Sequence record: MK234886
Reading direction: 5' to 3' (one strand)
Source of the DNA: Escherichia phage AnYang
Length of the DNA stretch: 64,000 nt
Below are positions 2,473 through 61,880 of the stretch, piece after piece. Every line of letters starts with the position of its first letter. Position 1 is the first letter of the stretch. The notes under the pieces are model-generated. The model searched no databases, was not told the origin of the DNA, and worked only from the letters and a program-made list of their open reading frames with translations. A program made the translations under genes and the position numbers.

Positions 2473-4728
2473 TTAAAGCTTACATGCTGCACAATCGTCG
2501 GCTTTAGGAGTTTCGATTTCGTAATCGTCAGTACCAGAACCATCACGGGTATTGTGATAATAGAGATTTTTTCCGCCATAATACCAGAAATATAGCAGGT
2601 CATCAAGCATTACAGACATCGGAACTTTTCCTTTTGGAAAAATCTGCGGGTCATAATAAGTGTTTGCTGATGCCGATTGACAAACCCATTTCAACATAAT
2701 CGCCACCTGCGTAAGATAAGGTTTATTACCTTTCTTAGCGAGGGTCCAAGCGTAATCGTAGAGCCCTTGATTATGTTCTACATTAGGAACTACCTGCCGG
2801 AAGTTACCTTCTTTAGATTCTTTAATACTTACTGGGCCACGCGGAGGTTCGATACCGTTTGTAGAGTTGGAAACCTGGCTGCTTGATTCACACGGCATAA
2901 GTGCTGATAATGTGCTATTACGGATGCCATGTTTAGCCAAGTCTTCCCGCAACGACGTCCAGTCGCAAACATAGTTAGGGGCTGCGATTTGGTCAATCTT
3001 TTTATTGTACCAGTCGATAGGTAATTCGCCTCGAGACCATTTAGTGTCTGAATAATACTCGCAAGGTCCTTTTTCTTCGGCCAGCTTGATGGATGCTCGG
3101 ATAAGTCCATATTGTAATCTCTCAAACAGTTCGTGAGTTAAATCGTTAGCGTCTTCATAAGAAGCAAAGTTGCTTGCCAACCAAGCAGCGTAGTTCGTAA
3201 CACCTACACCCAGGTTACGACGTTTCTTAGCCTTAAGAGCTTCAGGAACAGGATAATCTTGGTAGTCCAACAGGTTATCAAGTGCACGTACTTGTACTTC
3301 AGCCAGCTCATTGATTTTGTCTTGGTCTTGCCAATCGAAGTTATCCAGCACAAATGCAGACAACGTACACAATCCGATTTCAGCGTCCGGACTATTCACG
3401 TCAGTAGTCGGGATAGCAATTTCACAACACAAGTTGCTCTGGCGAATAGGAGCTTTCTCACGAATAAATGGTGTGAAGTTGTTAGTGTTATCAACGAACT
3501 GAGGATAAATTCGTGCAGTGCCTGAACGTTCAGTCATGAACAATTCAAAAAGGTCACGTGCTTTAATACGTTTCTTACGAATACTAGGGTCTTTTTCAGC
3601 AGCTTCATACAATTCACGGAAACGGTCTTGGTCTTCGAAATAAGAATGGTAAAGCTCACCACTCATTTCATGAGGACTAAACAGGGTAATGTAATCATTT
3701 TTGCCGAAACGTTCCATCATAAGGTCATTCAACTGGATTCCGTAGTCCATATGACGAATACGGTTCTCATCGACACCCTTGTTGTTTTTCAGAACGAGCA
3801 GATTCTCAACTTCCAAATGCCAAATAGGATAATAAGCAGTAGCAGCGCCGCCACGGATTCCACCTTGTGAACATGATTTAACAGCAGTCTGGAAATGTTT
3901 CCAGAATGGAATAACACCAGTATGTTTGACTTCGCCCATGCCAATACGAGAACCTTCAGCACGAATCATACCAACGTTGATACCAATACCTGCACGTTTA
4001 GAAATGTATTCAATTATTGAGTTAGCAGTTTTGTTAATAGATTTCAGTGAGTCGCCTGCTTCAATAACCACACAAGAACTAAATTGACGGGTTGGTGTAC
4101 GTGCTCCGGCCATAATAGGAGTAGGCAACGAAACCTGACGAGTACTTACAGCATCATAAAAACGGATAATATGCGCTAAACGATTACCCGGCTCTTCTTG
4201 GTGCAACGCCATACCAATGCACATAATAGCGAACTGAGGAGTTTCGTAGATTTTACCGGTTGTTTTATCTTTAACCAAATATTTCTCTTTCAGCTGCATT
4301 GCGCCTGCATAGGTCAATTCAAAGTCACGTTCATGCTTGATATGAGATTCTAAGAAAGTAATTTCTTCTGCAGAATATCGAGACAGCAATTCGGGGTCAT
4401 ATTTACCTTCGTTAACACAATAGGAAATATGGTCGATAAAACTACGTGGTTCAAACTGGCCGTAAACTTCTTTACGCAGTGCAAACATCAATTGCTTTGC
4501 AGCAACATATTGGTAATCAGGCTCTTCAACCGAAATAAGGTTGGCTGCTACCTTAACAGTCAGATTCTGGATATCTTTGGTAGTCATACCATCACGAAGA
4601 TGAGATTTGATTTCTTCGTATAATTCATAGGGGTCGATTTGGGTTCCTTCACAGCCCCAAGTCAGAACTTTAATAATTTTTTGTGCGTCAAAATCTTGGG
4701 ATACACCACTACTTTTTTGTACTTGCAT
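2473..4728 (-). CDS. nrdA: ribonucleotide reductase large subunit
   Basis: 751 aa; class I RNR alpha, size and synteny as T4 NrdA. Confidence 0.9.
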   Translation of the reverse strand: MQVQKSSGVSQDFDAQKIIKVLTWGCEGTQIDPYELYEEIKSHLRDGMTTKDIQNLTVKVAANLISVEEPDYQYVAAKQLMFALRKEVYGQFEPRSFIDHISYCVNEGKYDPELLSRYSAEEITFLESHIKHERDFELTYAGAMQLKEKYLVKDKTTGKIYETPQFAIMCIGMALHQEEPGNRLAHIIRFYDAVSTRQVSLPTPIMAGARTPTRQFSSCVVIEAGDSLKSINKTANSIIEYISKRAGIGINVGMIRAEGSRIGMGEVKHTGVIPFWKHFQTAVKSCSQGGIRGGAATAYYPIWHLEVENLLVLKNNKGVDENRIRHMDYGIQLNDLMMERFGKNDYITLFSPHEMSGELYHSYFEDQDRFRELYEAAEKDPSIRKKRIKARDLFELFMTERSGTARIYPQFVDNTNNFTPFIREKAPIRQSNLCCEIAIPTTDVNSPDAEIGLCTLSAFVLDNFDWQDQDKINELAEVQVRALDNLLDYQDYPVPEALKAKKRRNLGVGVTNYAAWLASNFASYEDANDLTHELFERLQYGLIRASIKLAEEKGPCEYYSDTKWSRGELPIDWYNKKIDQIAAPNYVCDWTSLREDLAKHGIRNSTLSALMPCESSSQVSNSTNGIEPPRGPVSIKESKEGNFRQVVPNVEHNQGLYDYAWTLAKKGNKPYLTQVAIMLKWVCQSASANTYYDPQIFPKGKVPMSVMLDDLLYFWYYGGKNLYYHNTRDGSGTDDYEIETPKADDCAACKL

Positions 4729-4856: not shown

Positions 4857-6545
<1,689 letters not shown>

Positions 6546-7949: not shown

Positions 7950-8594
7950 TCACTTCGAATAAAGCATTTTTAACTTAATGAATTCAGGGTCATCATTAGG
8001 AACCCAACCCTCATTAAATTGTTTAATCATACTCTTTGATGTAGTTTCACTAACATTTATACCAGAGTTAATGAGACGCCTCCATCCACAAGCTCTTCCA
8101 CTAGAATTAATTATACAATAATTAGTATAAGCAATATCACTAAGCATCCAATCTAAAGGGTTTGCTCTAGAAGTTTTCCAAGGACGGTAATCGGGTTGAT
8201 TCATATAGTTAGCAGCTTTCATATGGGCTCTAACTTCAGGACGTTTGGCTGGGTGAGTGCATCCAAAGACTCCAAATCCGCCACCGGCATAAACCAAATT
8301 AAAATAATCATCATTATCTCTAGCTTGAACTTCCAATTGTTCTGAACGTTCAATATTAATAACAATATCAAATGGCGTTATAGCCAAAATTTCAACAATA
8401 GGTTTTTCTTCTTCGAGGGCCTCTTTAAATCTTGATTGCTCGCAAGAGGTCCAATACTCTTTACCTTTACAGTCAATAATCACGCCATTTTCAAAAGTAC
8501 AATTAGTTTTAGAACCTATGTACGAAAACGGCTTAATATTATTAGCCTGACGATTAAGCCAAGTCATTTTATAAACTATATTCAAAATTGACAA
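7950..8594 (-). CDS. putative GIY-YIG endonuclease, SegG-like by position
   Basis: 214 aa; N-terminal NIVYKMT...FSYIGSK resembles a GIY-x(n)-YIG module; sits between 32 and 59 where T4 carries segG; overlaps gp59 start by 13 nt. Confidence 0.45.
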   Translation of the reverse strand: MSILNIVYKMTWLNRQANNIKPFSYIGSKTNCTFENGVIIDCKGKEYWTSCEQSRFKEALEEEKPIVEILAITPFDIVINIERSEQLEVQARDNDDYFNLVYAGGGFGVFGCTHPAKRPEVRAHMKAANYMNQPDYRPWKTSRANPLDWMLSDIAYTNYCIINSSGRACGWRRLINSGINVSETTSKSMIKQFNEGWVPNDDPEFIKLKMLYSK

Positions 8595-9235
8595 CTCTTA
8601 ATAGTCTCAATGAATAATTTTCTTGCCTCTACAGCATCTATTATAAGAATTTTTTTGTAAGCATTTAATTTAGTCGAATACTTAGACCACACTAAATCGT
8701 TAGTCTTTTCATCGTGCTTATCAATTATACCCATAAATGAATCAAGCAAAATAAACGTTTCGAATGAAATCACATTTGATTGAAGGAGCTTAAAAATATA
8801 GCTCGAGTTAACTTTTTTATTATAATCAAAAATTTCAGAAAGCGCTTGAACTTCCACTTTCTTACTAAAATAATAAATGTTTTTGATATCATCCTCAAAA
8901 ACTTGTTTTATTCTTTTAAGTCTACCGATATATTCTCGGTAAAAGACTAAGGCGTCAGCATCACTGATGTCGCCAATCCATGCGTCTTGGTTAGCCACCA
9001 AGTTACTCATGAAGATAAGAGCAAGCTCTTTCAAAGTGTATTTATCACTCAATTTCTCAAAGAAATATTTGTCACGACGTTTTTGATAAGCCGTATCAGA
9101 GATTCGCATGACCCAGTTATATTTTATAACGTCGTATTTGGCATTGAAGTGATGTTTAAGTTGCAAATATAAAGAATACACGCTCTTACCATTCACCATA
9201 CGATTGCTGTTTGGTGGCATACGAATCTTAATCAT
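8582..9235 (-). CDS. 59: helicase loader gp59
   Basis: 217 aa; near-collinear with T4 gp59 (KYDVIKYNWVMRISDTAYQKRRDKYFF, QDAWIGDISDADALVFYREYIGRL). Confidence 0.9.
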   Translation of the reverse strand: MIKIRMPPNSNRMVNGKSVYSLYLQLKHHFNAKYDVIKYNWVMRISDTAYQKRRDKYFFEKLSDKYTLKELALIFMSNLVANQDAWIGDISDADALVFYREYIGRLKRIKQVFEDDIKNIYYFSKKVEVQALSEIFDYNKKVNSSYIFKLLQSNVISFETFILLDSFMGIIDKHDEKTNDLVWSKYSTKLNAYKKILIIDAVEARKLFIETIKSCQF

Positions 9236-9914
9236 GATATTTCCATCCGGTCCACTTATCGCTTTTTAATCTGTAACTAACCAAACTATTAGATATTCCG
9301 AATTTGGAAGCCACTTCAGAACATGAATCATAACATATTCCATCGATAAGCAATTTCTTTTTGTATAAGTCTTTAAAAGATTGTGGCCTAGGTCCTGTAT
9401 TTGCCTTAAGAAGAGCAGCTCTTGTACTATCAGGCATTTTAGGTCCTTTCTTACCTGCTCTGGATTTACTTAGAGCTTTTCGATGTGCATCGGTAAGATT
9501 AATACCTTTATTTGGTGAAGGTATATTTCTAAGTCTTCTTGTTATAGAAACTTTTTTACAAACACTATCAGGTCGTGGAATACCTAATTTAGATTTACTT
9601 ATAGCAAGTTTATGTTCTTCAGATATTTTCTTACCAAGTCCACCTTTACCGCCAACAACCAAATTATAAGTATTCGGGTCTGAAACAAATTCTTCGTTAA
9701 CGAGTTCTCGCTCTTTATCAAAGGCCTCCTCTTGGGAATCCATAACAAAGAGAATTTCTTTTTCAAAATTCTCTATACCATGTTTTAATATAGCCTTCTT
9801 AATTAACTTACCTGAACCCATATAATGGTCATGGCGTTTGGTTTCTTTATGCACACCGATATAAATTTTACCATTCAATTTATTGGTTACTTTATATACG
9901 GTGTGTTTAATCAT
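9228..9914 (-). CDS. GIY-YIG homing endonuclease (Seg-like)
   Basis: 228 aa; TVYKVTNKLNGKIYIGVHKETKRHDHYMGSG; NUMOD-like repeats (HKLAISKSKLG, HRKALSKSRAG); inserted between 59 and 33. Confidence 0.8.
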   Translation of the reverse strand: MIKHTVYKVTNKLNGKIYIGVHKETKRHDHYMGSGKLIKKAILKHGIENFEKEILFVMDSQEEAFDKERELVNEEFVSDPNTYNLVVGGKGGLGKKISEEHKLAISKSKLGIPRPDSVCKKVSITRRLRNIPSPNKGINLTDAHRKALSKSRAGKKGPKMPDSTRAALLKANTGPRPQSFKDLYKKKLLIDGICYDSCSEVASKFGISNSLVSYRLKSDKWTGWKYHD

Positions 9915-46039: not shown

Positions 46040-46730
46040 TATCTCTAAAAGAGTATATTAAATTTTTGAGAGCACTTGCGGTAACGTCATATTTACCTTT
46101 AAGTTCTTTGACTACAGGACCTGTAGTTGGTTTACCTAATGAAAGCCAAATATTATAGATTTCGCTTTTCAATGGTTCATGCCAATGAGGAGCAGTTCGT
46201 TGAGCTTTAGAAGTGGCTTCAGATATTAATTTATTCCCACCATTCTCATAAAACTCTTTCATTATTTCTGATTGACGAGCTTTACGTTCAGGCCTATTCT
46301 GAGCTATAGCTTGAGCCTTCCTCATTTTAATCTTAGTTTCAGGTTTATTTAATCTAAGCTTGTGCTCTATACACTGTTCTTCAGTCCATTTATGTCCTTC
46401 GCTGCCAGCGCCACCTGGTAATATATTCAAGCATTCGTTAGGATGCTTTTCTCTTATTTTGGCTATTAAAAGTCTTTCATGATTAAAAGATTCTTCTAAA
46501 TTTTGGTGGCCTACAAACCAACGTATTTTATATTTTAGACCATACTTTTTATACATATTCCATAAGATTTTGCCAGAACCTGGATATCTATCTTTATTTG
46601 GATTTAGTATAAAGGTTTCATGTTTACCACCATACCAAAAGACGCCTTTCGGCGTCCTAATTTTTATCAAATAAGTTCTATAAAACTTAGCCTTAATAGC
46701 CACGGTCCTGCCTTGCAAAGTTTTCAGCAT
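46035..46730 (-). CDS. putative GIY-YIG homing endonuclease, SegF-like by position
   Basis: 231 aa; N-terminal YLIKIRTPKGVFWYGGKHETF module; between 56 and soc where T4 has segF. Confidence 0.5.
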   Translation of the reverse strand: MLKTLQGRTVAIKAKFYRTYLIKIRTPKGVFWYGGKHETFILNPNKDRYPGSGKILWNMYKKYGLKYKIRWFVGHQNLEESFNHERLLIAKIREKHPNECLNILPGGAGSEGHKWTEEQCIEHKLRLNKPETKIKMRKAQAIAQNRPERKARQSEIMKEFYENGGNKLISEATSKAQRTAPHWHEPLKSEIYNIWLSLGKPTTGPVVKELKGKYDVTASALKNLIYSFRDI

Positions 46731-47211
46731 TCTTCAGATAATAAAGTTTAAACATTTCTTCAGCCGACATATTCAGGCCAATAGCCATATTGAATACGAA
46801 GTGCATAATATCAATGAGTTCAAATTTAATTTCAAGCTGGTCTTCAGGAGACATTTCTGAAATAGGTTTGGCTTGTGCTTCCGGGTAACGGGCTTTCCAT
46901 TTTTTCCATACAGCAGATGCATCTTTCTCACCTTTAGACATTTCACCGAGGGAAGTCAGAAGTTCACGGAATTCATCGTCAATACAATCTTTCTGTTCAC
47001 GCATCCAAGCAACAACATCACCGGCTGTCGCTAATTTGTCCGGATGGTAACAATATTCACGGTCATTAGCCAAACGGACCTGTAATGATTTCTGCATATC
47101 AAGCATAACCTGCAGAGGGTCTTTATCTTCGTGAATCAGAGCATTAAAATAAGCTTCCTCAGCTTTATCAACACCGTCAATCAGGTTTGCGCATTCGTTA
47201 AAGTATGCCAT
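46693..47211 (-). CDS. 56: dCTP pyrophosphatase gp56 (MazG-like)
   Basis: 172 aa; size and synteny as T4 gp56. Confidence 0.85.
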   Translation of the reverse strand: MAYFNECANLIDGVDKAEEAYFNALIHEDKDPLQVMLDMQKSLQVRLANDREYCYHPDKLATAGDVVAWMREQKDCIDDEFRELLTSLGEMSKGEKDASAVWKKWKARYPEAQAKPISEMSPEDQLEIKFELIDIMHFVFNMAIGLNMSAEEMFKLYYLKNAENFARQDRGY

Positions 47212-52661: not shown

Positions 52662-53835
52662 GGTCGCTCACAAAATTCATGTTTTCTAAATCGCTTTCGA
52701 TGTCAGCGGCGCTTTGGGTATTTCCACCTAATTTAACAGCAACGTTTTTAGAGACACGAGAGTTAATAAGGTCGTTCACTGCATCGTCAACTTCTTTAAT
52801 AGAATTAATTGCACCAAGCTTATACTTATTCTCGATTGCTTCACGGAACGGAGCGTGTTTAAACAGAGGTCCCCAGAACTCAACACAATCGGTAGCTTTA
52901 GCACGCCATGCTTTTTCTTCTTGAACCATTTCACCTGTGGTTTCGTCAAGGAATGCACGATTATACCAACCAGCTTTAGGTTTCACGACAAAGCCGATAT
53001 CGGTAGCCATTTCAAGCAGACCAGAGAACGGGTCGATACCACCTTCGAAGTTAACGGTGATAGGGAACGTTGATTTCTCTTTAACCGTACGAGATTTCTC
53101 TGCTTTCAGTGTGAAGTCATAACCAGTGAGCTCAGTACCATCTTTAACTTGGCGTTTAGAGATAAAGAACACGGTAGAAGCAGAGTACAGAATACCAGTA
53201 CCACCACCCATAATCTCTTTAGGATACATTCCACCAATTTCCATAGCCGTGTGGTTAATTGCTACGCAAGGGATATCCTTGATGGTCAGATAAGGTGTTA
53301 CGATACGGAACAGAGATTTCAGTGACTTAGCACGAGTCATATCACCTACAACTTTCTCGTTCAAAGCATCTTCGGTTTCTTTCTTAGAAGCAGTGTTACC
53401 AATGGAGTCGATAAAGATAATAACCTTTTCGCCACGAGTAATTTCTTCTAACTGGTTGGTCATATCAACTTTAAGCTGTTCGACTGACTGGATTGGTGTA
53501 TGAACCACACGTTCCAAATCAACACCCATCGAACGGAAATAAGATTCTGAAGCACCAAACTCAGAGTCATAGAACAAACAAATTGCGTCTGGATATTTCT
53601 TCATATATGCCGCAACCATGGTAAGTCCAAACAACGTTTTAAAGTGTTTAGATGGGGCAGCAAAGATTGTCAAACCTGATTGTAAGCCTGCATTCAATGC
53701 ACCGCCTAATGCAATATTCAGCATAGGGATACGAGTAGGAACTTCGTCACGACCATTAAACAATTTAGATTTGGTCAGGTCGGCAGTCATTTTAGAAGTA
53801 GAAGCTTTAATCAAACGGGATTTTAAATCGGACAT
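52654..53835 (-). CDS. uvsX: UvsX recombinase (RecA-like)
   Basis: 393 aa; near-collinear with T4 UvsX (MSDLKSRLIKASTSK..., FYDSEFG, GGGTG). Confidence 0.9.
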   Translation of the reverse strand: MSDLKSRLIKASTSKMTADLTKSKLFNGRDEVPTRIPMLNIALGGALNAGLQSGLTIFAAPSKHFKTLFGLTMVAAYMKKYPDAICLFYDSEFGASESYFRSMGVDLERVVHTPIQSVEQLKVDMTNQLEEITRGEKVIIFIDSIGNTASKKETEDALNEKVVGDMTRAKSLKSLFRIVTPYLTIKDIPCVAINHTAMEIGGMYPKEIMGGGTGILYSASTVFFISKRQVKDGTELTGYDFTLKAEKSRTVKEKSTFPITVNFEGGIDPFSGLLEMATDIGFVVKPKAGWYNRAFLDETTGEMVQEEKAWRAKATDCVEFWGPLFKHAPFREAIENKYKLGAINSIKEVDDAVNDLINSRVSKNVAVKLGGNTQSAADIESDLENMNFVSDHD

Positions 53836-53912
53836 TATATTTTTCCATAGGCACCATTATATTTTACTCACGTTTTAAGATAGGGTAATTATATCACTTC
53901 ACATTTACAGCG

Positions 53913-54806
53913 TTAAAGGACCACGTCCTCATAACTTGGCATTTCGTGCTCAGAATGGATGTGGGCACCGAAATAAATGAATTCAGCCAGTCCAGGATGG
54001 AATACTAAACCAGGATTCTCATGATAAATGATATGAGGTCTTGATTTCAGAATCTGGTAATATTCAACCTTACTCGGTTTGAATTTAATAATCTCTACAT
54101 CAGGACGATAGTCTTCACGTTTAAATGAATCATTCGGATCGGTGATATAAAGACGAGCACCTTCAGCCGCAGCTTGGTCTACAACTCTTTCGAATTGATA
54201 ACACTTATCAGAGATACGGAACGGATGGAAAATACCATCAATTTTAATAGGCGCTAGACCTTCAGAGTAACGCTCAATTACTGCGGGATTAATTACCTTT
54301 TGGTCTACAAAAATCTTATCAGAGGACGCACCTCGTGACACCAGGACGTCTTTCTGACATTGATTCAGGACTGTAGTATAAATCGAACGTTCAACTGAAG
54401 ACACGTCGATATCAATGAACTCATCAATATAATAACGAGGAACTTCAGGGTCCATTGTAATGTTAAAGTTGAATTGTACAGTCTGAGTGCCATCATAACC
54501 TGTGATATCGGTTACTAATCCTGAGCAGTCATAGTATTCGATTAATGAATCAACGACGAACTCGTTTTCAGACCAAAAATGTTTACGGGTTTCATAAGCA
54601 TTTTCTTTATACCAAAGCGGCACAAAATTCAGTTCAGGAAACAATTCAATACATTCTTTGATATCGCTCGAATTTCTAGGATAAGCCAGATAATCACCTG
54701 GGCGAGCACGGTTTAAATGGAGTTGAAAATTGCCGTCCTTAAGGACGGCATATTCACCTGTTTCGTAACTACGCATACTGAAAATAGGAACGATAAATAG
54801 ACTCAT
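53913..54806 (-). CDS. hypothetical protein in the beta-gt slot (candidate DNA sugar transferase)
   Basis: 297-aa ORF, 4-nt overlap with the hydroxymethylase gene; no motif recognised; functional guess from position only. Confidence 0.6.
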   Translation of the reverse strand: MSLFIVPIFSMRSYETGEYAVLKDGNFQLHLNRARPGDYLAYPRNSSDIKECIELFPELNFVPLWYKENAYETRKHFWSENEFVVDSLIEYYDCSGLVTDITGYDGTQTVQFNFNITMDPEVPRYYIDEFIDIDVSSVERSIYTTVLNQCQKDVLVSRGASSDKIFVDQKVINPAVIERYSEGLAPIKIDGIFHPFRISDKCYQFERVVDQAAAEGARLYITDPNDSFKREDYRPDVEIIKFKPSKVEYYQILKSRPHIIYHENPGLVFHPGLAEFIYFGAHIHSEHEMPSYEDVVL

Positions 54807-55501
54807 TTCAGGAATCCTCGAACGTAGTCAAAATCACGTTCAAATACGTGTGCACTAACCATAGTATGGGAATATGTGCCCAGACCAACACCACATTGTT
54901 CAGCAATAAAGGCCATCAATTTACCCTGCAGATAGAAATCCAGCTGCATAACGATAGCACAGTTCTGTGAACGCATATGAGTGTGTGCATACAGACGTCC
55001 ATCACGAATATAATATGTTACCGAATCGGTACATGGATATTCTAAGGATTCGTCAGAATCAAGGAGGGCTTGGTCTTGTTCTTGGAGAATTTGGAACACA
55101 ACTCTTCGCGAGTTAGGCTTTTCTTTAAGCTCTTTAAGTAAGGCTGGGAGTTGGGCCACAATTCGAGGTCCATAGAAAGTGTTGAAGTTTGCAGGCAATA
55201 CGTCACTTTTCGGCTTATCAATGAACTTAGCAACATTAGGGTATTCCTTAAATGCTTCGGCGGCATCAGTACCACCAGAAATCATAAATTTCCAGAAAGA
55301 TTCGGCGTATTCATAACTAATACGATTGATACGCGGGTCGGTGAATTTATAGGTGCTTGCATCCAGTACTTCTACCGAAGCAGAACCAATTTCATAACAA
55401 CGGCCGATACGAGAATCAACTGCAAACTGTGGAGCTTCCAGGATTTCTTCGTTCATTTGTTTAAACGCGTTTTCAAAACTAACAGCGGTAATGTGTTTCA
55501 T
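54803..55501 (-). CDS. 42: divergent dCMP hydroxymethylase-like enzyme (thymidylate-synthase fold)
   Basis: 232 aa; KPNSRRVVF and EYPCTDSVTYYIRDGRLYAHTHMRSQN parallel T4 gp42 NPDSRRGIM and FMCTNTVQYLIRDKK...MRSND, but the rest differs. Confidence 0.65.
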   Translation of the reverse strand: MKHITAVSFENAFKQMNEEILEAPQFAVDSRIGRCYEIGSASVEVLDASTYKFTDPRINRISYEYAESFWKFMISGGTDAAEAFKEYPNVAKFIDKPKSDVLPANFNTFYGPRIVAQLPALLKELKEKPNSRRVVFQILQEQDQALLDSDESLEYPCTDSVTYYIRDGRLYAHTHMRSQNCAIVMQLDFYLQGKLMAFIAEQCGVGLGTYSHTMVSAHVFERDFDYVRGFLK

Positions 55502-56034
55502 TTATTCACCTTATTTTCAATATATTCATTCAGACGTTTTAATTCTACCATATCTACGTTAAGCAAGTTATTATGGCCGTCGTGATTTAAGATTTTAAAC
55601 ACGTTTTCAAAACATGTTTCATACTGCCGGATAGTTAGGTTGAACTCATCTTTGGTTAATTTAATAAGGTCATCTTCGAAGTCTTCATCTAATGGGTTAC
55701 GGGTTAAAATAACCTCAATAATATTGAATTCAGATTTAAACCCTTTCCAATCTTCCAGTTCTACATAAGGGTCCATTTCACCACGAAGGAATCCCGAGTA
55801 AACAATATTACTAGGATATCCACGGTCTAAGATGTAGACAAAATTAGGGTCTAAAAACTTATATAAGGTTTCGACTAAAGCCTTATCATTATCAGTCCCT
55901 ATTGAAATGCACTTACCATTAATCTTTTTAGGAAAATCAATAAGACGATATTTCTTATCAGATAAAAGCGATTCAATTAAAGTAGACTTCCCGGAATTAT
56001 CCGGGCCGTCGATAACAATGATTTTTGGTTTCAC
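55498..56034 (-). CDS. P-loop nucleotide kinase-like protein
   Basis: 178 aa; Walker A IVIDGPDNSGKSTL; dNMP/thymidylate-kinase-like. Confidence 0.6.
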   Translation of the reverse strand: MKPKIIVIDGPDNSGKSTLIESLLSDKKYRLIDFPKKINGKCISIGTDNDKALVETLYKFLDPNFVYILDRGYPSNIVYSGFLRGEMDPYVELEDWKGFKSEFNIIEVILTRNPLDEDFEDDLIKLTKDEFNLTIRQYETCFENVFKILNHDGHNNLLNVDMVELKRLNEYIENKVNK

Positions 56035-56429
56035 GGATGATATGCCTTATAGGTTTCAAGAGTTCCTTCACGAACCATTTCTTTAAAGTGGTCAGGACGG
56101 ATTGCTCGGTCATCGATGATAAAAGTATAACTCGGCTTATGTGTAAGCAGATTATGATATTTCAATCCAATCTTTTCAAGGTTCTTAACCAATGCAGGAA
56201 CTACTTCAACCAAGATTCGACCGGGGCCACATGAAGTCATACCACGAGCGGTGAACAATGTAATCTCGTACCCTTCATCATAAAGCTTATTAATCATGGA
56301 CACCATTTCGGTGTCCGGTTTAAAGTTTTCGTAATCACGGTCATGGTTCCAAACCGTGATTGTATTATCGATGTCAAAACATAAATGGGGCTTATTTTCT
56401 ACTCGATGTGACATTAAATTTTCTTCCAT
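56031..56429 (-). CDS. HAD-superfamily phosphatase
   Basis: 132 aa; motif I CFDIDNTIT (DxDxT), later K and IIDD elements. Confidence 0.6.
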   Translation of the reverse strand: MEENLMSHRVENKPHLCFDIDNTITVWNHDRDYENFKPDTEMVSMINKLYDEGYEITLFTARGMTSCGPGRILVEVVPALVKNLEKIGLKYHNLLTHKPSYTFIIDDRAIRPDHFKEMVREGTLETYKAYHP

Positions 56430-58087
56430 TGTTTGTGGAGTTCAGTAGAACCTGTAGGTTTATATTTTACACCAGTTTCTTGGTCAAGCAAAACCCACTT
56501 ATCAGGACAACGAGTGATAATTTGGGCCGTGATAGGGTCACGAACTTCATCGACAAATTCACCTGTGATAAGCTTACGCTTACGAGGATGCCGCTTCAGC
56601 AGCACACTCAGTTGGTACAAACCGTTGTAATAAGCACCTAGAGCTTTCAGAGGGTTATTTTTAAAGTAACCTGCCAGTGCCATCCAGATAACAGCAATCC
56701 AGAGCTTGTGCTTAAATGTACACATCGGAATATCGTCTAAAGGCATAACCTTTTCAATATCAACGAATACACGAGTTCCGTTACGAGTTAAGCCGCCCCA
56801 TAGAGGGTCAGAGTTAAATTTGTCATAACCATCGATAGAATAAAGCACCTTAGCTTCATCATAAATTGCAGGGCCTTTAGAACTATTACCAAAATAACCA
56901 CGTGGGTCGATGATTTTAATATCACCTTCATCCGACAACATAATATTACTGTAGTGCGGGTCACCATGAATAAGTTGGTACGGTTCTTTATGTTCAGACA
57001 GAATTTCTAAGGCGTGACGAAGAAGTTTTTCTGGGTCGCCTACCTTGAAGTCGTTAACATGGGTAATGCCCTGTGGAGCAAAGCCTTCAATCAATCCAGC
57101 AATAGAAGCATTACGAATCAGGACCTTGTCCAATACTTCTTTCTTAACATCGGAATACCATTGCTCATCGGATGGATTATCGATAGTCCCACCGAATGAA
57201 CGCAATGCACTAATGACCTTATAAACCATGAGGACTTTAGTTTCTTTAGACATAAACCGATAGGCATCTGCCATAGTACGACCAAAGATACGTTCCATTT
57301 TAATGAATTCACCTGGAGCAAAGTCTACAATGCTCGGAACGAATTCAGAATCAATAGAATTGTACCAATTGATTTCTTTAGATTGGATTTCTTTACCTAA
57401 TTCGTTAGTAGGTACTTTAATAGCCAGATTCTCAGTGAACTCTAATTTATTAAATTCACGGTTAATTTCAGAATCTTCATGGGCCTTAGCCAGTTTCAGT
57501 TTGTCACCGACATCAACTACAAAGTCCAGCTTACGTTCGGTCAAATGGACCATTGAATCTAGATTGTCAGCAAGGTCTTCGCCGTAATTAGAACCGTTAA
57601 AACCTGTCCAATTGGCTACTTGATACAAACCAACTACACCGCCACCGGTACCAATTTCACGCAGGTACGGTTCTTCAAATGTAAAACGACAGTCGGTCCC
57701 GTAGGTATAACAGTAGTCGTTATCCCACTCAACTTTATGACCCTCAGGAATGATGTCACACCAGTTAAACAGGACATTGTGCCCGATGATATCTTCGGCA
57801 ATGCAATCAATAGCATGAGCTGAACCATTAGCCACATCTACGTTACGAATAGTGAATTTAGGCTTATCACTATTAATCATGTTAATGGATTTAATATAGC
57901 CTTTAACGAGGTCGTTAAATTTGCTGTGAATAACCAGAATAATTTCATCTGATTGGTTACTATACAAATCATACAAATGTTTTAGTACTGTATGTTGTTT
58001 GTAGTTAACCAATACCTTCGGGATTTCGTTAGTAATTGGATACAACCGTGAGCCAAGACCTGCGCCTAAAATAACAACCTTTTTCAT
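56414..58087 (-). CDS. bifunctional sugar-1-phosphate nucleotidyltransferase / APH-like kinase
   Basis: Start at MKKVVILGAGLGSRL (GAGGAA RBS; track start 58117 has none); N-terminal NTP-transferase glycine loop; C-terminal kinase motifs LIHGDPHYSNIML and DIKIIDPRG. Confidence 0.7.
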   Translation of the reverse strand: MKKVVILGAGLGSRLYPITNEIPKVLVNYKQHTVLKHLYDLYSNQSDEIILVIHSKFNDLVKGYIKSINMINSDKPKFTIRNVDVANGSAHAIDCIAEDIIGHNVLFNWCDIIPEGHKVEWDNDYCYTYGTDCRFTFEEPYLREIGTGGGVVGLYQVANWTGFNGSNYGEDLADNLDSMVHLTERKLDFVVDVGDKLKLAKAHEDSEINREFNKLEFTENLAIKVPTNELGKEIQSKEINWYNSIDSEFVPSIVDFAPGEFIKMERIFGRTMADAYRFMSKETKVLMVYKVISALRSFGGTIDNPSDEQWYSDVKKEVLDKVLIRNASIAGLIEGFAPQGITHVNDFKVGDPEKLLRHALEILSEHKEPYQLIHGDPHYSNIMLSDEGDIKIIDPRGYFGNSSKGPAIYDEAKVLYSIDGYDKFNSDPLWGGLTRNGTRVFVDIEKVMPLDDIPMCTFKHKLWIAVIWMALAGYFKNNPLKALGAYYNGLYQLSVLLKRHPRKRKLITGEFVDEVRDPITAQIITRCPDKWVLLDQETGVKYKPTGSTELHKQWKKI

Positions 58088-58147
58088 TATCTGTTCCTCA
58101 AGTGAATGTAGGTACATTATACACTATTTTTAATAAATTGATACTGC

Positions 58148-58648
58148 TTAAATCTTATCTTTACCGATTTCGATGCACTGTTCTATTGCTGCCGGCACTT
58201 TGGTCTTGAGCTTATTGATTTGTTTCTTATAATCACGGGCCTTATCAAAGCTCTCGGTTTCGAGCATTTCGTAATAACGAGCCTCGTGGATGGAAATCTG
58301 TAGATTGATATGATTTACGCACATCGCATACAGTTTCTGTTTTTTGTACAAATCGTCTTGACGCTTCATTTCTGCCTGGTGTTTGGCTAGTACCGCTTCA
58401 CGCTTAGACTCTTGTTCACGTTGGAATTCGATTTCATGTTGAGCATATTTTGCACAGTTATTACCACATTGATTATTAGCTCGGGTATACACAAGTCCAG
58501 AACCTGCACGGAATTTCATTTCGCCATCGAATTGTTTCTGTTCAGCTGCGATACGAGCTTTACCAACTTCATCAGCCGAAACTGCATCACCATATTGGAC
58601 CGCGCAACCTGATAGGAGCATACTCATTGCGATAATTAACTTTTTCAT
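58148..58648 (-). CDS. putative lipoprotein
   Basis: 166 aa; signal peptide plus lipobox (AMSMLLSGCAV); coiled-coil-like, Cys-containing mature part. Confidence 0.6.
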   Translation of the reverse strand: MKKLIIAMSMLLSGCAVQYGDAVSADEVGKARIAAEQKQFDGEMKFRAGSGLVYTRANNQCGNNCAKYAQHEIEFQREQESKREAVLAKHQAEMKRQDDLYKKQKLYAMCVNHINLQISIHEARYYEMLETESFDKARDYKKQINKLKTKVPAAIEQCIEIGKDKI

Positions 58649-58655
58649 AATATCC

Positions 58656-58793
58656 TCAATTAAAACAGTTATACTTAATTTGTGCTATAAGAATAATCCA
58701 TCCGATGATTAGTGTCGGAATCATTGGTGGAATTGCCACTGCCCAATAAACGGTAAAGGCGACCATTATAAGAAATAAAATAATTATTTTCAT
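58656..58793 (-). CDS. hypothetical small membrane protein (imm.1 position)
   Basis: Manual 45-aa ORF MKIIILFLIMVAFTVYWAVAIPPMIPTLIIGWIILIAQIKYNCFN; ATGA overlap with upstream stop. Confidence 0.35.
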   Translation of the reverse strand: MKIIILFLIMVAFTVYWAVAIPPMIPTLIIGWIILIAQIKYNCFN

Positions 58794-59026
58794 TGCTTAA
58801 CGATAATGATTTGCGCGTTTGATTTACGTTCGGCGACGATAGCCCAGATTAAAGCCACTACCCAACCAATCATCGTCCAACCCAACAGGAGATTAAGGAA
58901 GAAAATTCCTACATTACTACGAGTGCCTCGCAGAAGAGCCAGAATCCATGGTAAGAAATAACCGATGAACATAATAACCAGAGAACCGAATCCTAAAACA
59001 CCTGCACTGACGATTAAAGCTTCCAT
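58790..59026 (-). CDS. imm: superinfection immunity protein Imm-like
   Basis: Track ORF trimmed to MEALIVSAGV (GAGGAA RBS); two TMDs; LPWILALLRGTRSN...LLLGWTMIGWVVALIWA resembles the Imm family; position after 43 as in T4. Confidence 0.65.
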   Translation of the reverse strand: MEALIVSAGVLGFGSLVIMFIGYFLPWILALLRGTRSNVGIFFLNLLLGWTMIGWVVALIWAIVAERKSNAQIIIVKQ

Positions 59027-59057
59027 TGTAATTTCCTCTAAGTAGTTGATAGGAGGG

Positions 59058-59087
59058 ATACTACCACGTTCCGTGTGGTATGTAAAC
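59058..59087 (-). promoter_or_regulatory. T4-type early promoter for imm-like gene
   Basis: GTTTAC-N18-TAGTATCCCTCCTATCAACTACT. Confidence 0.5.
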
Positions 59088-59089
59088 AC

Positions 59090-61801
59090 TTAAAAGTCAA
59101 ACATGTCAAATAATGTTGCTTTTTTCTCGTAGTCGATTTTAGCAGACTCGGTAAAACCGGTCAGAGGCTTGATAAAGGTCTTTTGGAACAGTACGTTGTA
59201 GTCCATCCAACGGAGGACTTGGTCACGAATCTGAATCGGAAGTTCAATACCTGAAGGCCATGCCATACAAGCTTCACCAAACGGGTTGCCTTCTTTAAGT
59301 GGCAGTACGTATACCTTTTCACCATCAACGATACGAGGCATAGTCAAATCACCAGCAGAAGCACGCATGTAAGCTAAGCAACCTTTGATGTGGTACGGAC
59401 ACTTAGAACCAGGGAATCCGCCTTCATTATATTTCTCGATGTTGTTAGCACTGGATACTGCTGCAATGCTTACATAGTCCAGTTCGTTAAATTCCTTATT
59501 AAACTGTTTGAAATATTCTTGCAAAGATGCCTCGCCTTCCTGAAGCATACGACGGATACATTCTTTCAGAGCTTTCTGAACCGCTTTAGGTGTACTTGAT
59601 TTCTGGGTTTCGAGCCCCATGATTTTCAAGTGTGGTTCGGCATAACGAGTGCCTTCCATGTCCCAAACGTTAAGTGCATAACGTTTCTTGCCTGTCCAGA
59701 ATCCACCAAGACCTTTAGAACCAAGTGGAGGACCTGCGATAGCTTCTCGGTCCATGAACATCAAGTGTTGTTTGTTGTTCATGTACTCGCACATCTCACG
59801 GAAGCCTGCATCAATAGCTGGTTCCATACGTTCACGTGCAAATTTATCTAAGAAGTCAACCCAGTGGTTAGTGTCACGGAATTTATCTTCGCCTACTTTA
59901 TTGATGATTGCATCTGCCTTAACATAAATGGAGTCGGTATCACCGTAGAGCACGAACTTCTGATTTTCAGTCTTACACACGCTATTCAGATATTCGTTAA
60001 CCTTACGTTCAATCCATTGGAGGGCCATTTGACCAAACAGTGTGATTGCAGTTGCGTTCCTAAGGTCATAGTAACGGAACCATACGTTACCAAGTGCACC
60101 ATAAAGGGAGTTGATAAGCAACTTACGGTTAATCTGAGCAGTGTTACCTGCAACTTCAGTGAGCTCGGCTTTCTTCAACATTTCTCTTAAAGAAGGCGCT
60201 GACAGTGCTTTAATCTGGGCTTTGATTTCGTCAGAGAAGTCAAAACGATAATCGATATCCAGTGGACTATCAACTGAGAGATTAGGATTTTCCAATGCTT
60301 CTTTAATTAACTCGCCATTACGTTGAGCTGCAAGCATGTAACCTTTATGTTCTTTACGCTGCAAGAATACCTTGGTGATTTCTGTCGGAATCACACCTTC
60401 ACGGTCTTTATAATACATCATGCCGTTAGGAGAGCAACTGTAGGTGTCGCTAGGACGCTGAGCAGTTCCGGCAATATATTCATGTATCGGTGCGTTAGCG
60501 AATGTGCCTGCGATGGTCTCTGGGCTTATATTCACTTGTCGAATGATACTCGGATACAGAGATGTAAGGTCGAAACTCATTACATATTTGTAAGCGTTAG
60601 GAATAGGTTCCTTAACGAAAGCACCAGGATAAGGTTGGACCACGTGTGAACGAGCTTGTGGAATTACCTTGCCTTGTTCTTTAAGACTATTAAAGATAAT
60701 AGCATCCCAAGTCTTAATTGGACTGAACACCGACTGAATCTGCATCTTAGCATAATACCCCATGTCCAAACTCAGAAGAATGAACTGGCGTTTCATATCA
60801 ATCTGCACTACACGATATACGTCGATAATGTTATAGGAAATATATCGTTGGTGGTTAGTCTCACGTAACTTGGAGATTGGACCATCATATTTCAACTTAC
60901 CTACTTTCAATTCATATTCAGAAACATAATCCAGAGAATAAGAAGGCTGGTTGGTAAAGCTGAATTTTTTATATAGGTCGATATAATCCAGAACAGAGAT
61001 ACCGAACAAAGTAATGATTTCACGAGCACCGTACATGTTCTCGATAACTTTAACACGAGTTTTACGATGTGGGCTTAATCGCTTAGCAGTGTTCTCACCG
61101 AACAGATTTTTCAGACGGTTATAAACGTATGGTACGTCAAACGACTCAACGTTCCATCCAGTCAAAATCACAGGAGTTTTCTGTTGCCAGAAGTTCAGAT
61201 ACTCAAGCATCATTTCTTCTTCAGAATTAAACGGAAGATAAACGATTTTGTCAATGATTTCTTGTGGAACTTCGTCACCACCTTCGTCTTGGAGTTTCTC
61301 AGCGATTTTAATCGACCACTCTTCAACAGTACCATAAGGTGAAACTAAAAGGTCGAATACATAGAATTTATCGTCAATCGAGTCGTAGTGGGTAATGGCA
61401 TCGATAGGATGTTTAGCCTGAGCTGGTTCAGGGAATCCATCAGGAGATGTTACCTCGATGTCGAAGTTAGCAATACGAATCTTAGAAGAATCATACTTGA
61501 TTTCTTTACGATAGGTATCGGACAAATAGGCTAATTTGTAGTCGTCCATACCCAGGGCTTCGAGACCCATATCGTCCATGCGTTTCATCCATTGGGATGC
61601 ATCACGCATAGAGTCAAATTCTTTCTTAACACAACCCTTACCATAGATATCAATGTATTTTACGGCTTGCTCTGGATTGGCATGCATAAACATTGTAGGC
61701 TTGTAAGGAACTTCACGACTACGTTCGTTACCATTTTTATCGATGTAACGTTCGAGAATATTATCACCGATTTGTTCGACTGTCAAATAGAATTCTTGCA
61801 T
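59090..61801 (-). CDS. 43: DNA polymerase gp43 (family B)
   Basis: Start at MQEFYLTVEQIGDN (track ORF has a 20-codon extension); 903 aa; exo motifs FDIEV, polymerase motifs DLTSLYPSI, YGDTDS; reads closer to RB69 gp43 than T4, from memory. Confidence 0.9.
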   Translation of the reverse strand: MQEFYLTVEQIGDNILERYIDKNGNERSREVPYKPTMFMHANPEQAVKYIDIYGKGCVKKEFDSMRDASQWMKRMDDMGLEALGMDDYKLAYLSDTYRKEIKYDSSKIRIANFDIEVTSPDGFPEPAQAKHPIDAITHYDSIDDKFYVFDLLVSPYGTVEEWSIKIAEKLQDEGGDEVPQEIIDKIVYLPFNSEEEMMLEYLNFWQQKTPVILTGWNVESFDVPYVYNRLKNLFGENTAKRLSPHRKTRVKVIENMYGAREIITLFGISVLDYIDLYKKFSFTNQPSYSLDYVSEYELKVGKLKYDGPISKLRETNHQRYISYNIIDVYRVVQIDMKRQFILLSLDMGYYAKMQIQSVFSPIKTWDAIIFNSLKEQGKVIPQARSHVVQPYPGAFVKEPIPNAYKYVMSFDLTSLYPSIIRQVNISPETIAGTFANAPIHEYIAGTAQRPSDTYSCSPNGMMYYKDREGVIPTEITKVFLQRKEHKGYMLAAQRNGELIKEALENPNLSVDSPLDIDYRFDFSDEIKAQIKALSAPSLREMLKKAELTEVAGNTAQINRKLLINSLYGALGNVWFRYYDLRNATAITLFGQMALQWIERKVNEYLNSVCKTENQKFVLYGDTDSIYVKADAIINKVGEDKFRDTNHWVDFLDKFARERMEPAIDAGFREMCEYMNNKQHLMFMDREAIAGPPLGSKGLGGFWTGKKRYALNVWDMEGTRYAEPHLKIMGLETQKSSTPKAVQKALKECIRRMLQEGEASLQEYFKQFNKEFNELDYVSIAAVSSANNIEKYNEGGFPGSKCPYHIKGCLAYMRASAGDLTMPRIVDGEKVYVLPLKEGNPFGEACMAWPSGIELPIQIRDQVLRWMDYNVLFQKTFIKPLTGFTESAKIDYEKKATLFDMFDF

Positions 61802-61859
61802 TTCATTTCCTTTATAGACGAGTGATTGTCTTTTGTTTGTTGATGAATCATTATACTCC

Positions 61860-61880
61860 AAAAGGGACCGAAGTCCCTTT
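61860..61880. terminator. hairpin flanked by A and T runs (possible bidirectional terminator upstream of gene 43)
   Basis: AAAA-GGGACC-GAAG-TCCC-TTT. Confidence 0.4.

Follow-up and report, generated by a model that had tools for sequence, protein, structure and literature searches.

The closest described relatives of the gene analyzed here are phage enzymes that convert dCMP to 5-hydroxy-dCMP (5hodCMP). RB69 gp48 catalyzes this reaction, with 5-hydroxy-dCMP and not 5-hydroxymethyl-dC as its product, and it binds a flavin where other enzymes depend on methylene-THF (Lee et al., NAR 2026, PMC13326640). In E. coli, RB69 gp48 and gp80 of the Acinetobacter phage DLP3 put 5hodC (243 Da) into DNA; the oxygen of this 5hodC derives from 18O2, and both proteins, when purified, bind an FMN-like flavin (PMC13326640). 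DLP3 gp80 and the RL38J1 enzyme are 5hodCMP synthases by experiment, and an Asn in place of D169 of thymidylate synthase (D169N) is diagnostic for the group, as confirmed for nine additional homologs (Lee et al., NAR 2026, PMC13326640). For the HY126 homolog, that paper cites He et al. (Nat Chem Biol 2026), whose crystal structure contains flavin and who also reconstituted the reaction. It further states that the RB69 DNA modification, earlier described as arabosyl-hmC, is in fact arabinosyl-5-hydroxycytosine, in which an ether joins the sugar directly to C5, that the RB69 dNMP kinase (gp1) phosphorylates 5hodCMP, and that arabinosylation takes place on DNA (PMC13326640). The sugar donor is made in HY126 by AfhE and AfhF, which together turn arabinose-5-phosphate first into the 1,5-bisphosphate, then into the 1-phosphate and finally into UDP-arabinose, AfhF being responsible for the step from arabinose-1,5-bisphosphate to arabinose-1-phosphate (Lee et al., PMC13326640). 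Dhakaviruses, the genus to which the phage studied here belongs, are named among the genera with a syntenic cluster (Lee et al., PMC13326640). Given this listing, the finding described below is already known: both the enzyme family and its occurrence in Dhakaviruses were published in 2025-2026.

T4 gp42 (PDB 1B49/1B5D/1B5E), the dCMP hydroxymethylase, shares with the protein described below the thymidylate synthase (TS) fold, the catalytic Cys, an acidic residue at the L143 position, Asp at N177 and the position in the genome, and the logic of its pathway is the same (gp56, gp1, gp43 and post-replicative glycosylation). Unlike the flavin-dependent enzymes, however, T4 gp42 is methylene-THF-dependent and attaches CH2OH, not OH, and its partner transferases use UDP-glucose.

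The gene in the gene-42 slot and its relatives

We analyzed a window of 64,000 nucleotides from Escherichia phage AnYang (MK234886), which corresponds approximately to a JS98 interval that starts at 139 kb, runs across the end of the genome and stops at 32 kb. An ORF at 54803..55501 on the minus strand begins with ATG and encodes 232 aa, compared with 246 aa for T4 gp42 and 264 aa for E. coli ThyA; the earlier note had correctly described the product as shorter than T4 gp42. Its start codon overlaps the TGA stop of the upstream gene (ATGA), its stop codon overlaps the ATG of the downstream gene, and AAGGTG can be read from the sequence approximately 6 nt 5′ of its ATG. The transcription order 43, imm, cluster, uvsX, 40, 41 makes the flanks collinear with those of T4, with the ORF in the gene-42 slot and a 297-aa gene in the beta-glucosyltransferase slot, so that the description of a TS-fold protein in the gene-42 position between T4-like flanks holds. 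The 232-aa protein matched 559 phage records in a tblastn search, with E-values down to 5e-151, which puts the ORF well outside chance. Scanning 53700..59200 for promoters and terminators returned 20 sites, no excess over the 17.7 expected from shuffled sequence.

The nearest relatives are found in JS98-like coliphages. The 4.3 kb surrounding the gene are 95-97% identical to SHP1, C6, IME08, MX01, Bp7, WG01 and QL01, and the protein itself shows 100% identity to its counterpart in phage MN04 and about 99% (99.1%) to orf39 of JS98 (genus Dhakavirus). Among solved structures, phmmer searches against the PDB returned 9IQC/9IQU/9IR2, the HY126 enzyme, as a full-length match with an E-value of 2e-126; these entries were deposited under the name "thymidylate synthase". 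The translated HY126 CDS (238 aa) agrees with the 9iqu/9iqc chain in the PDB alignment. Full-length identity is 79.7% to the HY126 enzyme and 79.3% to RB69 gp48, with no indels except a 6-residue N-terminal extension, and the Cys, L143E, D169N and N177D are identical in all three. Identity of 80% to an enzyme of known structure and activity is enough, in our view, to settle the fold and family of the 232-aa protein. The HY126 and RB69 genes also occupy the same slot between uvsX and gene 43, beside an arabinosyltransferase gene, although these phages are members of Mosigvirus, whereas the phage analyzed here is a Dhakavirus. More distant homologs include the DLP1 protein, an ortholog of DLP3 gp80 (72% identity), and a Rhizobium phage homolog (33%); DLP3 gp80/DLP1 and the Rhizobium phage RL38J1-type homologs carry the same signature residues as the AnYang protein.

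The next PDB matches were far weaker, with the CMP hydroxymethylase MilA at an E-value of 3e-14, followed by ordinary thymidylate synthases, and T4 gp42 at 8e-6. MilA (PDB 5JNH/5B6D), the best non-phage match and one that ranks above T4 gp42, aligns over residues 5-226; it is specific for cytosine nucleotides and has Asp at both key positions, but its substrate is the ribonucleotide CMP, its reaction is a folate-dependent hydroxymethylation, and it is about 100 aa longer. In a global alignment with T4 gp42 (NC_000866), 54 of the 214 aligned pairs (25%) are identical, and blastp against the same protein covers residues 86-232 only (E-value of 5.5e-12). The strong divergence from T4 gp42 that the earlier note had pointed out is thus real, and the identity of more than 60% that it had named as speaking against divergence is not reached in the alignment. 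Identity to E. coli ThyA is 19%. The Pfam family Thymidylat_synt (PF00303) is detected at residues 114-229, that is, in the C-terminal half only (E-value of 4.8e-14), and against the TS equivalogs of NCBIfam the protein scores 41-63 bits compared with cut-offs of 108-405 bits. An NCBIfam match to the NimABCDEF nitroimidazole reductase (E-value of 0.00099), in which no stretch passed alone, was taken as chance.

The features found at this locus are a TS fold, Asn at the D169 position, the triad of Cys, Asp and acidic residue, close relatives that have been validated, and adjoining genes for a glycosyltransferase and for NDP-sugar synthesis. Our findings indicate that 54803..55501 very probably encodes a 5-hydroxy-dCMP synthase, namely a TS-fold enzyme that employs flavin in place of folate for the O2-dependent hydroxylation of dCMP at C5. 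The activity, the flavin and the origin of the oxygen from O2 are established for homologs with 79-80% identity, from which we infer that the phage analyzed here shares both this activity and the sugar, and that it adds a single arabinose. The 20% of residues that differ from the characterised enzymes were counted against this reading.

Active-site residues and a proposed reaction

Having placed the protein in its family, we aligned it with RB69 gp48, the HY126 enzyme, the DLP1 ortholog, the Rhizobium phage homolog, T4 gp42 and E. coli ThyA, and mapped residue positions onto ThyA numbering; as a check, this alignment returned the known C148 and D179 of T4 gp42. The conserved blocks are KPNSRRVVF (R132, R133), EYPCTDS (C157) and HMRSQNC (R177, S178, Q179, N180), in agreement with the NSRR, PCT and MRSQN signatures recognised earlier. 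The nucleophile, C146 in ThyA and C148 in T4 gp42, is C157. At the position of ThyA N177, which governs substrate specificity and where Asp denotes cytosine, the protein has D188 (D179 in T4 gp42), and at the position of L143, which distinguishes a methyl from a hydroxymethyl product, it has E154 (D145 in T4 gp42). The diagnostic difference lies at D169, which is D171 in T4 gp42 and becomes the 5hodCMP synthase signature when replaced by Asn: here, the residue is N180. Asn at this position is common to the 232-aa protein and all four other homologs of this branch in the alignment; the MRSQN block pointed out in the earlier note includes this residue. ThyA has the same fold and shares R132/R133 and R177, which are phosphate-binding arginines, as well as S178, Y110 and H218 with the AnYang protein, but its L143, D169 and N177 are all replaced and about 43 of its C-terminal residues are absent.

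Other positions set the same five proteins apart. In this small alignment, all of them have Phe at E58, Ala at W80 and Val at G173, whereas T4 gp42 and ThyA retain the Glu, Trp and Gly. In the 232-aa protein, F69 stands at the E58 position and A91 at the W80 position, in an N-terminal part of the alignment that is less certain, so that none of the folate-site residues D169, E58 and W80 is retained, with the same caution for E58 and W80. The five proteins also all end opposite ThyA residue 221. The substitutions at E58 and W80, as aligned in this less certain region, that at G173 and the early C-terminal end are consistent with a remodelled cofactor site.

The earlier note had left the substrate as either dCMP or another pyrimidine. 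Because D188 occupies the position of E. coli N177, dCMP is the most likely substrate, and the same residue disfavours others such as dUMP. Steps of the reaction can be proposed from thymidylate-synthase chemistry together with the published flavin and 18O2 data. Cys157 would add to C6 of dCMP, the cytosine being recognised by Asp188; a flavin-derived oxygen species, located in what was once the folate site, would then oxygenate the activated C5; and elimination of Cys157 would release 5hodCMP. An assay with methylene-THF, as suggested in the earlier note, would probably come out negative.

Neighbouring genes and the predicted DNA decoration

The ORF is the fourth of five closely packed minus-strand genes with overlapping stop and start codons. 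The first of these, at 56414..58087, encodes a bifunctional protein with an N-terminal sugar-1-phosphate nucleotidyltransferase and a C-terminal APH-like kinase (Pfam NTP_transferase and APH domains), a homolog of RB69 gp52:53 and HY126 AfhE with 41-45% identity to RB69 gp52 and gp53 and 98.6% to JS98 orf42. We set its start at 58087 after JS98 orf42, the maximal ORF reaching 58117; a PDB sequence search with this protein returned weak nucleotidyltransferase matches only. The second gene (56031..56429) encodes a HAD-family sugar phosphatase that is homologous to RB69 gp51 (63% identity) and HY126 AfhF and that matches a capsule biosynthesis phosphatase and HAD-IIIA in NCBIfam. The third (55498..56034) encodes a P-loop, thymidylate-kinase-like nucleotide kinase with 37% identity to its RB69 homolog gp45; it falls in phrog_761 ("thymidylate kinase"), its NCBIfam matches to cmk and dTMP-kinase P-loop families are sub-threshold only, and a PDB sequence search returned no match. 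This kinase-like gene lies upstream of the hydroxylase gene here but downstream of it in HY126 and RB69. The fifth gene (53913..54806), in the T4 beta-gt slot, encodes a putative DNA arabinosyltransferase 1; its product has 64-69% identity to RB69 gp46 and gp47 by tblastn and a match to phrog_3891, with no match in Pfam or in a PDB sequence search, and its role is putatively assigned by homology to the RB69 and DLP3 proteins of Lee et al. (PMC13326640).

Further from the cluster, 46696..47211 on the minus strand encodes the gp56 dCTPase/dUTPase, with 77% identity to JS98 gp56 over all 173 aa (tblastn), and the JS98 annotation lists gp56, the gp1 dNMP kinase, alc, denA and denB. From these genes, a pathway can be proposed. 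The phage gp56 would supply dCMP and remove dCTP, the dNMP kinase and the host NDK would turn 5hodCMP into 5hodCTP, and gp43 would incorporate 5hodCTP in place of C. The product of 53913..54806 would subsequently move arabinose onto the 5-OH in DNA from UDP-arabinose, which may be made by the AfhE-like and AfhF-like enzymes of 56031..58087.

Three genes of the characterised phages are missing from this cluster. Searches by tblastn of the window and of JS98 1-50 kb detected no homolog of RB69 gp55 (arabinose-5-phosphate isomerase), of RB69 gp50 (Peptidase_U32 family) or of RB69 gp3 (second arabinosyltransferase); the interval from rIIA to gene 39, where RB69 carries gp3, is devoid of a homolog in this phage. 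JS98 from 50 to 139 kb was judged by GenBank annotation and a Pfam scan; the annotation together with the scan, which took in ten larger unassigned ORFs, revealed no SIS or glycosyltransferase domain elsewhere in JS98. By contrast, RB69, HY126 and CHI14 have both an arabinose-5-phosphate isomerase gene and a U32-like gene, the latter directly before the enzyme gene, and DLP1 has the isomerase. That the Dhakavirus cluster has neither the isomerase nor the U32-type protein nor the second arabinosyltransferase of other genera is one minor new point of this analysis. Since three of their genes are missing, the final DNA modification may differ from that of the characterised phages.

We therefore weighed the reading that the enzyme is a genuine 5hodCMP synthase but that the 5-OH carries a decoration unlike that of RB69 and HY126, through another sugar or linkage or through one arabinose. 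The sugar-activation part of the cluster is both divergent and reduced: the identities of the AfhE-like protein (41-45%) and of the kinase-like protein (37%) to their RB69 counterparts are low, and the isomerase, the U32-like protein and a gp3-type transferase were not found in the window, in JS98 1-50 kb or by JS98 annotation and Pfam. Related phages also vary in this respect, since Lee et al. report one to three sugars among them and hexoses in RL38J1 (PMC13326640); DLP3 adds three arabinoses and RL38J1 builds galactose/glucose chains, in both cases by extra transferases that are absent here. Against a different decoration, conservation relative to RB69 is good for both the transferase (64-69%) and the HAD phosphatase (63%). 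Moreover, E. coli itself encodes two arabinose-5-phosphate isomerases, KdsD and GutQ, and arabinose is for this reason the simplest reading. On balance, we regard a decoration unlike that of RB69 and HY126 as possible, though the less favoured outcome. From the gene content, we infer a single arabosyl (mono-arabinosyl) decoration that would rely on host KdsD and GutQ. A minimal five-gene arabinosyl-5-hydroxycytosine system, yielding mono-glycosylated 5-hydroxycytosine from a KdsD/GutQ-derived precursor or else a sugar unlike that of RB69, is put forward here as a tentative proposal. If true, such a cluster would show which genes of the pathway are dispensable, and dependence on KdsD/GutQ would create an exploitable host-dependency.

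Hydroxymethylase and thymidylate synthase readings

The view of the earlier note and of the literature from 2010 to 2021 was that the protein is a diverged T4-type dCMP hydroxymethylase, which would use methylene-THF to form 5-hydroxymethyl-dCMP in a phage with hmC or glycosylated hmC. This view draws on the gene-42 position and on the Cys, the acidic L143 position and the N177D shared with T4 gp42, and it accords with Petrov et al. (2010), who gave JS98-type phages a gene 42 allele (PMC2993671), and with several GenBank records in which the ortholog is labelled dCMP hydroxymethylase. However, the 25% identity to T4 gp42 contrasts with 80% to enzymes that make 5hodCMP and not 5hmdCMP, and T4 gp42 retains Asp169 and, by alignment, also Glu58, Trp80 and Gly173, whereas the AnYang protein has Asn at 169 and, in the less certain N-terminal alignment, Phe and Ala at E58 and W80, with Val at G173. 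Nor is there a glucosyltransferase to accompany a hydroxymethylase: tblastn detected no T4 beta-gt homolog in the 64-kb window or JS98 1-50 kb, and the JS98 annotation contains no alpha- or beta-glucosyltransferase, only the small ORFs a-gt.2 to a-gt.5; Petrov et al. (2010) likewise listed no partner glucosyltransferase for the JS98 gene (PMC2993671). The earlier assignment of arabinosyl-hmC to RB69 has itself been revised to arabinosyl-5-hydroxy-C (Lee et al., PMC13326640). A T4-type hydroxymethylase is thus very unlikely. What the earlier note picked out is a genuine anomaly, which it took for divergence among hydroxymethylases; that placement does not stand, given the 79-80% identity to the HY126 enzyme and to RB69 gp48, which makes 5-hydroxy-dC.

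The identification as a 5hodCMP synthase would imply that the phage substitutes glycosylated 5-hydroxycytosine, and not T4-style glucosyl-hydroxymethylcytosine, for every cytosine. It would change predictions about the defence systems (restriction, CRISPR and type IV) that the phage can evade or set off, and it bears on the sequencing and cloning of phage DNA and on the choice of therapy phages. Orthologs are publicly labelled "thymidylate synthase" (in RefSeq as well), "dCMP hydroxymethylase" (in several GenBank records) or "hypothetical", and both Pfam and PHROG name the family "thymidylate synthase". Annotation calls for caution here, as Asn180 and the gene neighbourhood give a function that the public labels miss.

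Despite those family names and RefSeq labels, there is a negligible probability that the protein is an additional thymidylate synthase or is directed at dUMP in some other way, e.g., as an SPO1-type dUMP hydroxymethylase, since Asp188 at N177 specifies cytosine, Glu154 replaces L143, all NCBIfam TS equivalog scores lie far under their cut-offs, the characterised homologs use dCMP (PMC13326640), and the window already contains a full-length canonical td. The SPO1-type enzyme (SPO1 gp29) was set apart by position 177, where uracil specificity would call for Asn and the AnYang protein has Asp188. The td gene, at 4857..5720 on the minus strand, matches PF00303 over its full length with 328 bits and scores 328 and 311 bits in NCBIfam, above two TS equivalog cut-offs. 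Its product retains MALPPCH and keeps L143, D169 and N177, and it is the real thymidylate synthase of the phage, serving as an internal control for 54803..55501.

Gene content of the arabinosylation cluster

Comparison with the RB69, HY126, CHI14 and DLP1 loci revealed that the Dhakavirus arabinosylation cluster is reduced to five genes (53913-58087, minus strand). In the window, we detected no homologs of three RB69 genes: the arabinose-5-phosphate isomerase gene (gp55), the Peptidase_U32-like gene (gp50) and the gene for a second arabinosyltransferase (gp3). Gene order also differs: in the window, the hydroxylase gene (54803..55501, minus strand) is preceded by the thymidylate-kinase-like gene, which in the compared loci is found downstream of the transferase gene. 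Together, these features suggest mono-arabinosylation and reliance on host KdsD/GutQ.

The Peptidase_U32 family includes the O2-independent hydroxylases RlhA, TrhP and UbiU/V, with RlhA producing 5-hydroxycytidine in 23S rRNA. RB69 gp50 (8493-9662 in the RB69 locus) matches Peptidase_U32 (Pfam, 42 bits) and, weakly, UbiU; given this family membership, gp50 might provide an anaerobic route to 5-hydroxycytosine. A gp50-type gene adjoins the hydroxylase gene on its upstream side in RB69, HY126 and CHI14. The sole label for gp50 in Lee et al. (NAR 2026, PMC13326640) is "sugar or heterocycle reductase".

Residues accompanying D169N and annotation of orthologs

We aligned the window protein, RB69 gp48, the HY126 enzyme, the DLP1 ortholog and a Rhizobium phage homolog with T4 gp42 and E. 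coli ThyA, a small sample in which the N-terminal part of the alignment is uncertain. All five D169N homologs, including the 33%-identical Rhizobium phage protein, carry Phe, Ala and Val at the positions of ThyA E58, W80 and G173 (F69, A91 and V184 in the window protein), and none of the five has the C-terminal tail of ThyA. At the three positions, Glu, Trp and Gly are retained in both T4 gp42 and ThyA. The three residues and the absent tail could be additional markers, besides D169N, of a folate-to-flavin switch. As an internal control, we used the window's canonical thymidylate synthase td (287 aa; 4857..5720, minus strand), which retains L143, D169 and N177.

In public records, some hydroxylase orthologs are named hypothetical protein or thymidylate synthase and others dCMP hydroxymethylase or deoxycytidylate 5-hydroxymethyltransferase, and the HAD phosphatase (56031..56429, minus strand) is widely annotated as "phosphoheptose isomerase". 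While a 2021 survey described some Gaprivervirus phages as having no base-modification enzyme, phage VR5 carries a 98% identical copy of the hydroxylase gene.

Other genes of the window

On the same strand as td lie nrdA (2473..4728) and a frd-like ORF (5717..6532). The gp56 dCTPase (46696-47211, minus strand) is 77% identical to its counterpart in phage JS98, whereas the neighbouring genes compared reach 94-100%, suggesting that the segment around gene 56 is mosaic or recombinant. For DNA polymerase gp43, the mechanically called ORF (59090-61861, minus strand; 923 aa) opens with a TTG at 61861; since the 903-aa JS98 protein aligns from 61801, the ATG at that position is probably the true start.

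Between the AfhE-like gene (56414..58087, minus strand) and imm lies a 166-aa ORF (58148-58648, minus strand; JS98 orf43, phrog_1754), at roughly the place occupied by the A5P isomerase gene in RB69. The ORF has a lipoprotein-type N-terminus (MKKLIIAMSMLLSGC), and its product could be a superinfection-exclusion-type lipoprotein.
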